A DNA stretch of 64,000 nucleotides from an uncultured Rhodobacteraceae bacterium (lineage in GTDB: Bacteria; Pseudomonadota; Alphaproteobacteria; Rhodobacterales; Rhodobacteraceae). Positions within the stretch are counted from its first letter, which is position 1; every line of letters starts with the position of its first letter. The notes beneath the pieces are model-generated. The model did no database searches and was not told the DNA's origin. It saw only the letters and a list, made by a program, of their open reading frames with translations. A program made the position numbers and the translations under genes. The stretch is from positions 78,279 to 142,278 of the forward strand of contig CALMSR010000040.1 of assembly GCA_937872465.1 (NCBI GenBank). Reading direction: 5' to 3'. Shown here one piece after another: positions 11,648 through 14,835 of this stretch.

Positions 11648-12460
11648 TCAGCGGAGCGCGTTCTCACGCAAATCGAACTGCTTGTATGAGATCGGCACAG
11701 CGAACCTCTCCTGCAGGATGCGCAAGTACCGACCTGCGACCTCCGTCAGCGGAAGGTGAGACACGATGATGAGCTCGTCCGCCCGCTCCTCCGAAGGCCA
11801 GAAAGCGTACTCAAGGAGCTGTGGGAGTGCCTGACGGATGTTCGTCCTGACCGCGGCGTTTGTCTTGATTTCATAAAAGATGGTCTTGCCACTGTCCCGC
11901 GTGACCAAATCAATAAGTGTCCCGCTACCCGTGGACTGTTCTGTCCCAACGCTCTTCGCGCCAAGTTTGGCCTTGAGGTATTTGTAGAGCTTGTTCTGAA
12001 TCTCGTTGTGTAGGCGGTCCGCAATGGATTCAGGCGATGCGGACCTCTCGATCGGATCCACGGCGCGCTCTGTATGCCCCGGCTTGAATTGGAACTTGCT
12101 GGTGGCGGCACCTTCAGCGCAATCGTGGAAGAACTGCAGATCCTTCGTGTATGGTGCGTCCAATGCTTTCAGAATGGAGATTAACTGCTTCGGCTCAGTA
12201 ATTTGCCATGCCTGACCGTGCTTGTTGCGTATCGTTGAAGGGCCTGCCAAACGCTCTAGCGACGGTACAAGCGACTTCGGCGGCCCTAGTTGGAATCGGT
12301 CCAGATGCGGCGCGAGCCAAATCATTCCATTAGAAACTCCTTCCTTGATGATGCTATACTCTTTGCGTACGTAATCTTTTGGGCTCTTGTGTAATCTCAA
12401 AGTCGAAAAACGCTTAAGAACTTCTTCAAGTTCCGTCTCTAGCCACGCGCTGTAATCCAT
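11648..12460 (-). CDS. Orphan PD-(D/E)xK superfamily nuclease (restriction-endonuclease-like), lower GC than flanks
   Basis: C-terminal LHNEIQNKL...GTEQ...IDLVTRDSGKTIFYEIKT...RQALPQLLEYAF gives a D...ExK core plus a QxxxY motif. Start MDYSAWLET at 12460. Visibly AT-richer codons. Confidence 0.75.
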   Translation of the reverse strand: MDYSAWLETELEEVLKRFSTLRLHKSPKDYVRKEYSIIKEGVSNGMIWLAPHLDRFQLGPPKSLVPSLERLAGPSTIRNKHGQAWQITEPKQLISILKALDAPYTKDLQFFHDCAEGAATSKFQFKPGHTERAVDPIERSASPESIADRLHNEIQNKLYKYLKAKLGAKSVGTEQSTGSGTLIDLVTRDSGKTIFYEIKTNAAVRTNIRQALPQLLEYAFWPSEERADELIIVSHLPLTEVAGRYLRILQERFAVPISYKQFDLRENALR

Positions 12461-12462
12461 AA

Positions 12463-12645
12463 CTACCTCGCGAACTTCTTGTACTTGATCCGCTTCGGCT
12501 CCACCGCATCGGGGCCGAGGCGGCGGATCTTGTCGGCCTCGTAGTCCTCGAAGTTGCCTTCGAACCACTCGACGTGGCCCTCGCCCTCGAAGGCGAGCAT
12601 GTGGGTGCAGATGCGGTCGAGGAAGAAGCGGTCGTGGCTGATCAC
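12463..12645 (-). repeat. Diverged copy of the ettA 3' end (last 60 codons plus stop)
   Basis: Colinear with 13180-13362. Manual alignment gives 11 mismatches in 183 bp: 9 synonymous or stop-codon changes and 2 conservative (A>G, D>E). Confidence 0.95.
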
Positions 12646-12659
12646 TGCGACTAACCCCG

Positions 12660-12884
12660 TCACTCCAGCCGCTCCGCGATCCACATCTTGATCAGCGCCT
12701 GGCGGGTGATGCCGAGGTGGGCGGCGCGGGCGTCGAGGCCCTCGACCATCCAGGCGGGAAAGTCGACGTTCACGCGGCGGGCGGCGAGGCCGGGGCGGGT
12801 GGCGCGGTCGAAGTCGAGGTGGGGGGCGATATCCTCGCCGGCGTCGAACGCGCGGTCGAATTCCTCAGCGGAAACCTTCTTCAT
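12660..12884 (-). CDS. Type II antitoxin, BrnA/CopG (ribbon-helix-helix) type
   Basis: EEFDRAFDAGEDI...RRVNVDFPAWMVEGLDARAAHLGITRQALIKMWIAERL; overlaps the toxin gene. Confidence 0.85.
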   Translation of the reverse strand: MKKVSAEEFDRAFDAGEDIAPHLDFDRATRPGLAARRVNVDFPAWMVEGLDARAAHLGITRQALIKMWIAERLE

Positions 12885-13131
12885 AGCGGGCCACCTCCTC
12901 CTTGCGGGCCCGGCGGGCGGAGATCAGTCGGAGGCGGTCGTCGCGCCGGGTGAAGACGACCGTCCAGTGCCGGGCGCCGATCCTGCCGATGAGCACCCAC
13001 CGCGCCTCGCCGCGGGTGCGGGCCGGAACCTCGAGGCAGCGCGGATCCGACCAGACGGCCTGCGCCTCCTCGAAATCGAGGCCGTGCTTCTCCAGGTTGG
13101 CGGCGCTCTTGGCCGGATCGAACTCGAACAC
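12865..13131 (-). CDS. brnT: BrnT family toxin (DUF497 ribonuclease)
   Basis: FEFDPAKSAANLEKHGLDFEEA...RWVLIG...VVFTRRDDRLRLISARRARKEE. Confidence 0.9.
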   Translation of the reverse strand: MFEFDPAKSAANLEKHGLDFEEAQAVWSDPRCLEVPARTRGEARWVLIGRIGARHWTVVFTRRDDRLRLISARRARKEEVARYEEGFR

Positions 13132-13134
13132 TGC

Positions 13135-13163
13135 AATATGGTATGCGGCCGGGGTCGGCGCAA
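13135..13163 (-). promoter_or_regulatory. Sigma70-type promoter of the TA operon, probably leaderless
   Basis: Minus strand TTGCGC-N17-CATATT ending 3 nt before the GTG start. Confidence 0.5.
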
Positions 13164-13179
13164 TATCTTTTCTATACCA

Positions 13180-14835
13180 TTACCGCGCGAACTTCTTGTA
13201 CTTGATCCGCTTCGGTTCCACCGCGTCCGGGCCGAGGCGGCGGATCTTGTCGGCCTCGTAGTCCTCGAAGTTGCCCTCGAACCATTCGACGTGGGCGTCG
13301 CCCTCGAAGGCGAGCATGTGGGTGCAGATGCGGTCGAGGAAGAAGCGGTCGTGGGAGATCACCACGGCGCAGCCGGCGAAGTCGGTGAGCGCGTCTTCGA
13401 GCGCGCGCAGGGTCTCGACGTCGAGGTCGTTGGTGGGCTCGTCGAGGAGGAGGACGTTGCCCCCCGTGCGCAGCAGTTTCGCGAGATGGACGCGGTTGCG
13501 TTCGCCGCCCGAGAGCAGGCCGACCTTCTTCTGCTGGTCGCCGCCCTTGAAGTTGAAGGCGCCGCAATAGGCGCGGGAGTTCATCTCCGCGTCGCCGAGG
13601 CGGATCACGTCGAGGCCGTCGGAGATCTCCTCCCAGACGGTCTTTGAGGGATCGAGCGCGTCGCGGGACTGGTCGACATAGGCGAGCTTGACGCTTTCGC
13701 CGTAGGTGACGGTGCCCGCGTCGGGCGCCTCCTGGCCGGTGAGCATGCGGAAGAGCGTGGTCTTGCCGGCGCCGTTGGGGCCGATCACGCCGACGATGCC
13801 GCCGGGGGGCAGGCGGAAGCTGAGCCCGTCGATCAGCTCGCGCTCGCCGTAGTGCTTCTCGAGGCCCTCCACGTCGATGACGTTCGCGCCCAGCCGCGGG
13901 CCGTTGGGGATGACGATCTGGGCGCGGGTGATCTTCTCGCGCTCGGATTTCGCGGCGAGTTCGTTATAGGCGTTGATGCGGGCCTTCTGCTTGGCCTGGC
14001 GGGCTTTCGCTCCTTGCCGGATCCATTCGAGCTCGCGGGCCAGCGTCTGCTGGCGGGACTTGTCCTCGCGCGCCTCCTGGGCGAGGCGCTTGGCCTTCTG
14101 TTCCAGCCAGGAGGAGTAATTGCCCTCGTAGGGGATGCCGCGGCCGCGGTCGAGCTCGAGGATCCAGCCGGTGATGTCGTCGAGGAAGTAGCGGTCGTGG
14201 GTGACGATCAGGATCGTGCCCTTGTACTCGATCAGGTGCTTCTGCAGCCAGGCGATGGTCTCGGCGTCGAGGTGGTTGGTGGGCTCGTCGAGGAGCAGCA
14301 TCTCCGGGGCTTCGAGCAGCAGCTTGCAGAGCGCGACGCGGCGCTTCTCGCCGCCCGAGAGCGTCGAGACATCGGCGTCGTCGGGCGGGCAGCGCAGCGC
14401 CTCCATGGCGACGTCGATCTGGCTGTCGAGATCCCAGAGGCCCTCCGCGTCGATCTGGTCCTGGAGCGCGGTCATCTCGTCGGCGGTCTCGTCGGAATAG
14501 TTCATGGCGACCTCGTTGTAGCGGTCGAGGATCGCCTTTTTCGCCGCCACGCCGTCCATGACGTTCTCGCGCACGGTGCGGGTCTCGTCGAGCTGCGGCT
14601 CCTGGGGCAGGAAGCCGACGCGGATGCCCTCCGCCGCCCAGGCCTCGCCCTGGAAGTCCTTGTCCTGGCCGGCCATGATCCGGAGCAGGCTCGACTTGCC
14701 CGAGCCGTTGACGCCGACCACGCCGATCTTCACGCCGGGAAGGAAGCTCAGGCGGATGTTCTCGAAGCATTTCTTGCCGCCGGGATAGACCTTGGTGAGT
14801 CCGTCCATGTGGAAGACGTATTGCGGCGTGGCCAT
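13180..14835 (-). CDS. ettA: ABC-F energy-dependent translational throttle protein
   Basis: Two ABC cassettes (GVNGSGKS, GPNGAGKT, LSGGE, LLLDEPTN), no TM domains, FLPGVKIGVVG, EWFEGNFEDYE. Confidence 0.96.
   Translation of the reverse strand: MATPQYVFHMDGLTKVYPGGKKCFENIRLSFLPGVKIGVVGVNGSGKSSLLRIMAGQDKDFQGEAWAAEGIRVGFLPQEPQLDETRTVRENVMDGVAAKKAILDRYNEVAMNYSDETADEMTALQDQIDAEGLWDLDSQIDVAMEALRCPPDDADVSTLSGGEKRRVALCKLLLEAPEMLLLDEPTNHLDAETIAWLQKHLIEYKGTILIVTHDRYFLDDITGWILELDRGRGIPYEGNYSSWLEQKAKRLAQEAREDKSRQQTLARELEWIRQGAKARQAKQKARINAYNELAAKSEREKITRAQIVIPNGPRLGANVIDVEGLEKHYGERELIDGLSFRLPPGGIVGVIGPNGAGKTTLFRMLTGQEAPDAGTVTYGESVKLAYVDQSRDALDPSKTVWEEISDGLDVIRLGDAEMNSRAYCGAFNFKGGDQQKKVGLLSGGERNRVHLAKLLRTGGNVLLLDEPTNDLDVETLRALEDALTDFAGCAVVISHDRFFLDRICTHMLAFEGDAHVEWFEGNFEDYEADKIRRLGPDAVEPKRIKYKKFAR

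Follow-up and report, generated by a model that had tools for sequence, protein, structure and literature searches.

A probable homology-anchored, integrase-free insertion of a brnTA toxin–antitoxin pair at the 3' end of ettA in a Rhodobacteraceae bacterium

Integrase-free insertion anchored by homology is already known from other loci. The case described here lies at ettA in an uncultured Rhodobacteraceae bacterium (GenBank assembly GCA_937872465.1, contig CALMSR010000040.1, positions 78,279 to 142,278 of the forward strand; this whole 64-kb stretch is referred to as the window), and it is characterized by a toxin–antitoxin (TA) cargo and by heteroallelic repeats, that is, two different alleles of the ettA 3' end. 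Among the closest described systems, phage 21 and e14 at icd are integrase elements that carry a replacement 3' end for their target gene. Insertion with long target duplication was reportedly described by Nobusato et al. in 2000, and C-terminal displacement with orphan arrays in Rhs and contact-dependent growth inhibition (CDI) loci is said to have been described by Jackson in 2009 and Poole in 2011. In long target duplication, the repeats often run across a stop codon, which leaves the target gene intact (PMC2853133; Furuta, Abe and Kobayashi 2010). Homology-facilitated illegitimate recombination (HFIR), for which PMC5361080 and PMC3240628 cite de Vries and Wackernagel 2002, Prudhomme et al. 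2002, and Meier and Wackernagel 2003, has been proposed for displaced modules in type VI secretion system (T6SS) and Rhs loci (Kirchberger 2017, PMC5361080). The ettA locus of the window is best read, with a probability of about 0.6, as a recombination scar anchored in the conserved 3' end of the gene, at which an incoming ettA tail linked to brnT and brnA (brnTA) was joined on its far side by an illegitimate or single-crossover event.

On the minus strand, the genes follow the order ettA, brnT, brnA, a second 183-nt ettA 3' end and a low-GC, PD-(D/E)xK nuclease-like gene (Table 1). The tail of the resident ettA is designated T1 and the displaced tail T0. The brnA stop codon (12660-12662) is separated from the start of T0 (12645) by 14 nt, and the T0 stop codon TAG (12463-12465) is separated from the ATG of the nuclease-like gene (12458-12460) by 2 nt. 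The gene order and both gaps had been given in an original prediction made from the letters of the window and proved correct in every detail checked.

A co-occurring strain of the same species (L001, GCA_035326525.1) contains ettA followed after 2 bp by the 270-aa gene, with neither brnTA nor a second tail, and the same is seen in four similar places. Over ~20 kb, L001 and the window differ in three respects only: an indel of 717 bp, the alleles of the tail and a patch of 87 bp within an OmpA-family gene; the flanks on both sides of the indel are 99.98-100% identical. The 717-bp block is present in the window and in L002, L088 and L089, and absent from L001. This difference is a genuine indel polymorphism. 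The single ettA tail of L001 matches T0 at 181/183 positions, and the sole mismatches are AG for TC at 12638-12639, at the 5' edge of T0, where L001 and the resident ettA read GTGATC-TC-CCAC and T0 reads GTGATC-AG-CCAC, both encoding serine. From T1, the L001 tail differs at 9 sites, comprising 8 mismatches within 13185-13297 and the stop codon. Because the L001 tail carries the T0 alleles, T0 is taken to be the species' own tail, displaced, and T1 to belong with brnTA. Judged from these alleles, the block that is present or absent would be brnTA together with the tail now on ettA, not a tail together with the nuclease-like gene. The original prediction had regarded the downstream copy as foreign and had named closeness to this genome's own ettA as evidence to the contrary; by that measure this part fails, as the copy at 12463-12645 carries the alleles of this species' own ettA tail in L001, and T0 is not demonstrably foreign. 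Separately, the patch in the OmpA-family gene (16431-16517, 18 mismatches/87 bp relative to L001) lies in a repeat-rich, coiled-coil-like (ERDATIEKLTATV) part and resembles gene conversion or repeat shuffling.

The two tails were recovered by a repeat finder as a direct repeat (12464-12645 / 13181-13362) of 95% identity. Alignment of the full 183-nt copies, including stop codons, gives 11 differences: AGC/TCC (Ser, 2 nt), GAG/GAC (E/D), GGC/GCC (G/A), six single synonymous changes and the stop codons TAG/TAA. The alignment confirms the earlier count of nine silent and two conservative differences, and 58/60 amino acids are identical. As 21% of the possible single substitutions in the segment are synonymous, the probability of at least 9 silent changes among 11 is 2.6e-5. 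Thus, both tails evolved as parts of working ettA genes, in line with the earlier suggestion that the silent bias points to intact, diverged ettA alleles. T0 and T1 share one identical block of 57 nt.

Six independent contigs, between 50 kb and 1 Mb long, encode the exact BrnT and BrnA proteins, and the arrangement is the same on each. One 651-nt unitig (12608-13258), present in two activated-sludge runs, extends from the 5' part of T0 across brnA and brnT into the 3' part of T1; its depth is 69.5x and 42.9x, compared with 77-89x and 41-49x in the flanks. The Logan unitigs do not phase across the 57-nt identical block (empty-allele reads). The short contigs L003-L006 terminate within the tail, where breaks are expected because of the repeat. 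The assembly chimera that the original prediction had raised against itself is ruled out by the six contigs and by the junction-spanning unitigs at flank-level depth.

Table 1 Features of the ettA locus in window coordinates.
Feature	Position	Strand	Basis
270-aa solitary nuclease-like gene, PD-(D/E)xK C-terminal domain	11648..12460	-	Motif, fold, context
T0, displaced ettA tail, 60 codons + TAG, frame intact	12463..12645	-	Alignment
14-nt spacer from brnA stop to displaced tail; contains right-hand insertion junction	12646..12659	-	Sequence
717-bp indel, one of several equivalent registers	12646..13362	-	Comparison with L001
brnA, 74 aa, BrnA/CopG-type antitoxin	12660..12884	-	NCBIfam NF047399
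brnT, 88 aa, BrnT-family ribonuclease toxin	12865..13131	-	Pfam PF04365
ettA-brnT spacer with inverted repeat	13132..13179	-	Sequence comparison
T1, last 60 codons + stop TAA of resident ettA; brnTA-linked allele	13180..13362	-	Alignment
Mosaic 3' tract of ettA	13180..13450	-	Divergence from L090
ettA, 551 aa, energy-dependent translational throttle ABC-F protein, intact	13180..14835	-	NCBIfam equivalog + Pfam

The 3' end of the resident ettA is mosaic. Relative to L090, a different species in which a 78%-identical nuclease homolog lies 3 bp past a complete ettA, the last 270 nt contain 6 differences (2.2%), compared with a divergence of ~13% upstream of a breakpoint near 13450 (P = 3.5e-5, normalised to a 74-species positional baseline). 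This result indicates that ettA 3' ends have been exchanged between lineages. Since the nuclease of the window is just 78% identical to that of L090 although the tails are close, the similar tract comprises the ettA end alone.

The neighbourhood of ettA varies among close relatives and displaced tails recur, which bears out the original expectation of a variable region downstream of the gene. In four other lineages (L008, L009, L081 and L096), brnTA lies directly after ettA. L009 and L010, the latter an Amaricoccus sp. metagenome-assembled genome (MAG), encode EttA proteins about 88-91% identical to that of the window and share its downstream lipocalin gene, and the ettA-to-lipocalin interval is different in every close relative compared: it holds the nuclease-like gene in L001; brnTA, tail and nuclease-like gene in the window; a truncated brnT, brnA, a second BrnA-like gene, trxC and a carbonic anhydrase gene in L009; and a 154-aa ORF beginning on the ettA stop together with a RAYT-like gene in L010. 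It appears from these comparisons that two ettA neighbourhoods, ettA-nuclease and ettA-brnTA, circulate in related activated-sludge Paracoccaceae (Amaricoccus-like) and are joined in the window strain.

An nhmmer model built from 80 ettA tails and run on all loci detected extra tails in three places only, namely the window's species, L081 and L007. In L081, a Paracoccaceae MAG, a decayed, frameshifted 110-nt tail follows directly after brnA (E = 3e-15), with a low-GC trypsin-like gene 42 nt further on. As this remnant has L081-specific codons, the L081 event is independent and older. In L007, a 50-nt tail precedes mgtC and a carbonic anhydrase gene, which are followed by a 138-nt tail and, after 2 bp, by a nuclease homolog of 57% identity. 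Repeat starts fall at tail-model positions 1, 65, 45 and 133; these differences between cases argue against a fixed att or crossover site.

Several side observations concern these relatives. In L081, the trypsin-like gene (10849-13030) is interrupted by an IS3-family element (11361-12514). In L007, the orphan tails (8544-8593 and 9860-9997) bracket mgtC and a beta-carbonic anhydrase gene, ettA itself is gone and an opposite-strand rsgA-like gene abuts the 50-nt remnant; the structure reflects either a rearrangement with a breakpoint in ettA or a mis-join of the metagenome contig. In L009 (10229-10676), brnT has lost its start and ~20 N-terminal codons next to an intact brnA, which is thus an orphan antitoxin gene, and the second, distant BrnA-like gene (11105-11392) lies 430 nt further on. 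A 20-nt tail match in L009 was rejected as a chance match, as it lies inside the carbonic anhydrase gene (shared EGDAHV peptide). In addition to the 154-aa ORF of L010 (10180-10644), two REP-associated tyrosine transposase (RAYT)-like genes (10698-11423 and 12089-12391) flank the lipocalin gene. L096 (reverse complement, about 1780-2466), an activated-sludge contig, has ettA-brnTA followed by a different low-GC ORF, with no tail remnant.

Mobility genes are absent. Among the genes called up to 10 kb away in each direction, none has an integrase or transposase domain; tRNA and tmRNA genes are lacking from 1-30000, and no relative of the ettA tail was found in 2.9 million viral contigs (IMG/VR), so that the earlier statement that no integrase is nearby stands. 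An ettA tail is also lacking from the plasmid-borne relatives of brnTA (65-70% nt identity) in Sulfitobacter, Roseovarius and Paracoccus. The locus is neither an integron nor an integrase island, as there is no recombinase and the boundaries vary. Recombination anchored in the ettA C-terminus is considered the best mechanism on account of the diverged alleles, the lack of an integrase, the variable interval, the recurring tails and the mosaic ettA. The original prediction had proposed integrase-free recombination at this site; that part is retained, and its polarity is probably reversed.

In the preferred reading, a segment consisting of T1, the brnTA promoter/operator, brnT, brnA and 14 nt would have integrated through ettA 3'-end homology without an integrase, with the second join inside ettA, ~183 nt ahead of its stop. 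The outcome would be an intact ettA with the incoming tail, and a T0 pushed downstream that still abuts the nuclease-like gene, whose ribosome-binding site would lie in the last ettA codons. The direct repeats would also permit loss of the block by homologous recombination. The incoming DNA may have arrived by transformation, by conjugation or in a gene transfer agent. Two variants may be envisaged. In variant (a), a circularised or terminally redundant fragment would enter by a Campbell-type single crossover in the 57-nt identical block; this would account for all 11 differences, including AG, and the donor allele would be AGC combined with the T1 alleles. L009 and L010 have AGC as well, and a tail reconstructed in this way has 8 differences from theirs, compared with 15 for the L001 tail. 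In variant (b), HFIR would combine a left crossover located before the serine codon with an illegitimate join at codon V489, and pop-out in the 57-nt block would later give the empty allele. The probability of about 0.6 applies to variants (a) and (b) jointly.

Comparison with the known systems shows both likeness and difference. As in insertion with long target duplication, there is an empty site with aligning flanks, the repeats exceed 30 bp (here 183 nt) and are single-copy in L001, there are no mobile-element genes in or beside the insert, the insert is smaller than 20 kb (here 717 bp, brnTA only), the repeats cross the stop codon of an intact target gene and the cargo is selfish or addictive. 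In contrast, the cargo here is a type II TA pair rather than a restriction-modification system, the ettA 3' end has served as target repeatedly, and the two repeats are different alleles, 6% apart with a silent bias, and hence not a true duplication. Because the copies differ at 11/183 positions in strains that are otherwise identical, one repeat was imported, which argues for homology-anchored integration rather than a staggered-cut duplication. As in C-terminal displacement in Rhs, CDI and T6SS loci, an incoming module with shared upstream sequence takes over the gene 3' end and the old end with its linked gene is displaced, the newest module lying nearest the gene; T0 and the nuclease-like gene are found behind brnTA, and analogous arrangements are seen in L081 and L007. 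However, the target here encodes a housekeeping translation factor, the tails both specify the EttA C-terminus and not alternative toxin domains, the linked genes are not immunity genes, and the arrays are short (one displaced tail here, two in L007). With HFIR, the locus shares one homologous anchor (the ettA 3' end, a ~270-nt mosaic tract), a non-homologous far join and no dedicated recombinase; the classic outcomes delete recipient DNA, whereas here the anchor is duplicated, AG/TC is unexplained by the simplest version and the mechanism is deduced from sequence. Finally, as with phage 21 and e14 at icd, a conserved gene 3' end is duplicated with mostly silent differences and the gene remains functional, but here an integrase is lacking, the block measures 717 bp and the repeat boundaries are variable.

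Several points weigh against the preferred reading. No donor with a matching T1-brnTA sequence was found in JGI metagenomes or in 80 Rhodobacterales species representatives: the exact 41-mer of the T1-to-brnT junction has no match in JGI metagenomes, a degenerate junction pattern retrieved a single contig, L096, with ettA-brnTA, no matching T1 and no displaced tail, and the nearest tails among the species representatives are 10 differences away. L090, reached through its nuclease homolog, has a tail 4 differences from T1. A second tail occurs in only 1/80 species representatives, which makes the process rare. T1 is nearer than T0 to the tails of all near relatives (4-10 vs 7-17 differences), and this, together with the commoner ettA-brnTA order in the clade, would fit the opposite polarity. 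The AG/TC difference at the repeat 5' edge is not accounted for by simple HFIR into an L001-type allele and requires a donor with ettA homology at both ends, or a pop-out. The empty allele may itself be derived, as the L001 tail also fits a pop-out in the 57-nt block.

The strongest alternative accordingly keeps the polarity of the original prediction: a tail and nuclease gene from an ettA-nuclease donor would have landed 14 nt after brnA of a resident ettA(T1)-brnTA, and L001 would have arisen by later pop-out. This is a serious possibility, though clearly a less probable one than the insertion of T1-brnTA. The earlier polarity depends on L001 being a pop-out product. Besides the tail distances, the GC content marks the nuclease-like gene as clearly foreign, near relatives most often have ettA-brnTA (L008, L009 and L096), and a crossover in the 57-nt block would give exactly the L001 tail, TCC with T0 alleles. 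Natural ettA alleles with AGC at the serine codon in question exist. However, this order takes two events, an insertion followed by a precise pop-out, when a single insertion would be enough, and the loss of a TA operon that it entails is expected to be counter-selected, given the addiction caused by type II TA systems. The donor fragment would also have had to start within the last 50-183 nt of ettA in three independent cases. At four-fold sites, brnTA is less diverged from L096 (7/77) than ettA is (0.22), which suggests that brnTA may be the recently mobile part. The tail distances and the four-fold divergence are conflicting, weak signals on the direction of the event.

A broader idea extends insertion at ettA to all the cargoes. 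The last ~180-270 nt of ettA would serve as a portable homology arm, each cargo (brnTA, the nuclease-like gene, mgtC with carbonic anhydrase) travelling with its own tail and landing before the previous one, to give an integron-like, newest-first array without a recombinase; the nuclease may promote the process by cutting nuclease-less ettA (intronless homing). This scheme is considered unlikely.

Site-specific integration, in which the ettA 3' end is the att site of an integrase-bearing element with its own tail and the 717-bp block is a remnant or was trans-mobilised, is disfavoured and has a low probability. An element-borne, silently diverged 3'-end copy that restores a conserved gene is its classical signature, and a crossover at the repeat 5' edge fits all 11 differences. 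Nevertheless, the 10 kb on each side hold no integrase or recombinase domain, brnTA is the sole content of a block of only 717 bp, the repeat boundaries of the window, L081 and L007 leave no constant att core, and the viral contigs and plasmid brnTA relatives are free of the tail.

The identities of the genes are well supported by family models. EttA scores 939.8 bits against the NCBIfam equivalog NF008775 (cutoff 599) and 942.6 bits against TIGR03719, and its Pfam domains, two ABC_tran and one ABC_tran_Xtn, give the two ABC domains and linker of a full-length EttA. BrnT matches Pfam PF04365 (E = 8e-29, 100.2 bits, cutoff 34.5), and BrnA matches NCBIfam NF047399 (118.2 bits, cutoff 60), its Pfam CopG_antitoxin score of 23.6 bits being under that family's cutoff. 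The two genes overlap by 20 nt (12865-12884). With both families above curated cutoffs, an overlapping bicistronic operon and an upstream palindrome, the pair has the features of a BrnT/BrnA type II TA system, and the toxin and antitoxin roles are predicted from these family matches. The inverted repeat of the ettA-brnT spacer consists of ATGGTAT at 13174-13180, which overlaps the ettA stop, and ATACCAT at 13138-13144. All four lineages with brnTA directly after ettA retain the ATACCAT half-site; its partner is conserved in L008, L009 and L096, where it reads GGTATAG, but not in L081 (TGGTGTA). The spacer is a putative brnTA promoter/operator. Beyond brnA, the 14-nt spacer bears a loose likeness, judged by eye, to the post-brnA sequence of L009.

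The 270-aa gene has a GC content of 45-62%, compared with 64-78% in its surroundings, and its product gave nothing significant in Pfam, NCBIfam, PADLOC and PDB sequence searches. Over the C-terminal 165 residues, the product shares 45-72% identity with a large family of ~376-aa proteins, whose genes lie directly after D12-class or MT-A70 methyltransferase genes in the four contexts inspected, once with a helix-turn-helix (HTH) controller-like gene. This context suggests that the 376-aa proteins are type II restriction endonucleases. Residues D184, E197 and K199 are invariant in 36 sequences and correspond to the PD-(D/E)xK catalytic motif. The AlphaFold2 (AF2) model of the 270-aa protein has a pLDDT of 87.6, and the top Foldseek hits are all PD-(D/E)xK nuclease domains (Cdn1, Can2, Card1 and R.BspD6I) with modest E-values of 1.5e-3 to 0.1; the catalytic acidic-acidic-lysine motif is thus found on the core fold. 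The informative lines for annotation were context, motif and modelled fold, and the label nuclease is reasonable. The short form has a distinct ~105-aa N-terminal domain and no adjoining methyltransferase gene; no methyltransferase related to the long-form partners occurs within the window. The last codons of T0, GCG AGG TAG TT ATG, contain GAGG, a predicted Shine-Dalgarno sequence for the nuclease-like gene, and the stretch from ettA to the 3' end of that gene showed no terminator-like site. Expression of the gene probably depends on the preceding tail. RNA runs yielded conserved ettA words only (5-7%).

Further relatives of this protein were noted. The 376-aa restriction-endonuclease family is widespread, unnamed and without a Pfam model; L092 (4796-7131) and L093 (4982-7131) contain members after D12 or MT-A70 methyltransferases, with the HTH gene in L093. 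A 57%-identical short-form homolog in L091 (303-1756) lies away from ettA and is followed by a ParD/ParE TA pair; upstream of it, a possible decayed tail was seen by eye and is not significant (nhmmer E = 0.8).

From its context, cleavage of ettA alleles is a candidate activity of the nuclease. The nuclease may be viewed as a free-standing homing-type endonuclease that cuts nuclease-less ettA and is copied in by repair, the tails being co-conversion tracts. The context is suggestive, as the gene lies 2-3 bp from an ettA stop or tail in three lineages, is low in GC, resembles a solitary restriction-endonuclease gene with no methyltransferase in the window, and the mosaic 3' tract of ettA has its end at the stop codon. 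However, the fourth homolog, that of L091, has no ettA tail, the window also carries the second tail allele T1 uncut, and the window and L090 nucleases are 78% identical while their tails are 96-98% identical, which speaks against recent joint travel of tail and nuclease; homing is therefore regarded as very improbable. An assembly artefact, or a local tandem duplication followed by drift, is refuted for practical purposes: metagenome assemblies commonly break or mis-join at repeats, as the ends of L003-L006 illustrate, but six long contigs and run-level unitigs extend across both junctions with the depth of the flanks, the 11 differences between the copies have a strong silent bias while 20 kb of flanking sequence match the empty-site strain exactly, and ettA-linked relatives of the inserted genes exist elsewhere.

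The generality of the arrangement was surveyed in the 80 Rhodobacterales species representatives, 75 of which have enough downstream sequence for a first gene. The first genes after ettA belong to 65 different families among the 75 species, and this diversity makes the region downstream of ettA a synteny breakpoint. ORF calling in this survey was rough, and L008 was mis-called. In a Pfam scan of 113 ORFs from the 75 species, most were housekeeping, and the only TA-like families were BrnT and BrnA. The original prediction of variable cargo therefore holds, whereas that of a general defence/TA hotspot does not, given the mostly housekeeping content and the single species with an extra tail. The locus is not a general defence hotspot or island; it is rare, yet recurrent in the window's neighbourhood of the tree.

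For annotation, the arrangement accounts for short orphan ABC-F fragments and for repeat-induced contig breaks near ettA, and it flags an unnamed restriction-endonuclease family without a Pfam model, together with a solitary short form tightly coupled to ettA. The heteroallelic repeats show that a long target duplication can be half imported, which constrains the mechanism. With filled and empty alleles in near-identical strains, the locus provides a natural example of small addictive or defensive genes entering a chromosome without a mobility gene, the incoming DNA bringing the end of a conserved housekeeping gene as its landing pad.

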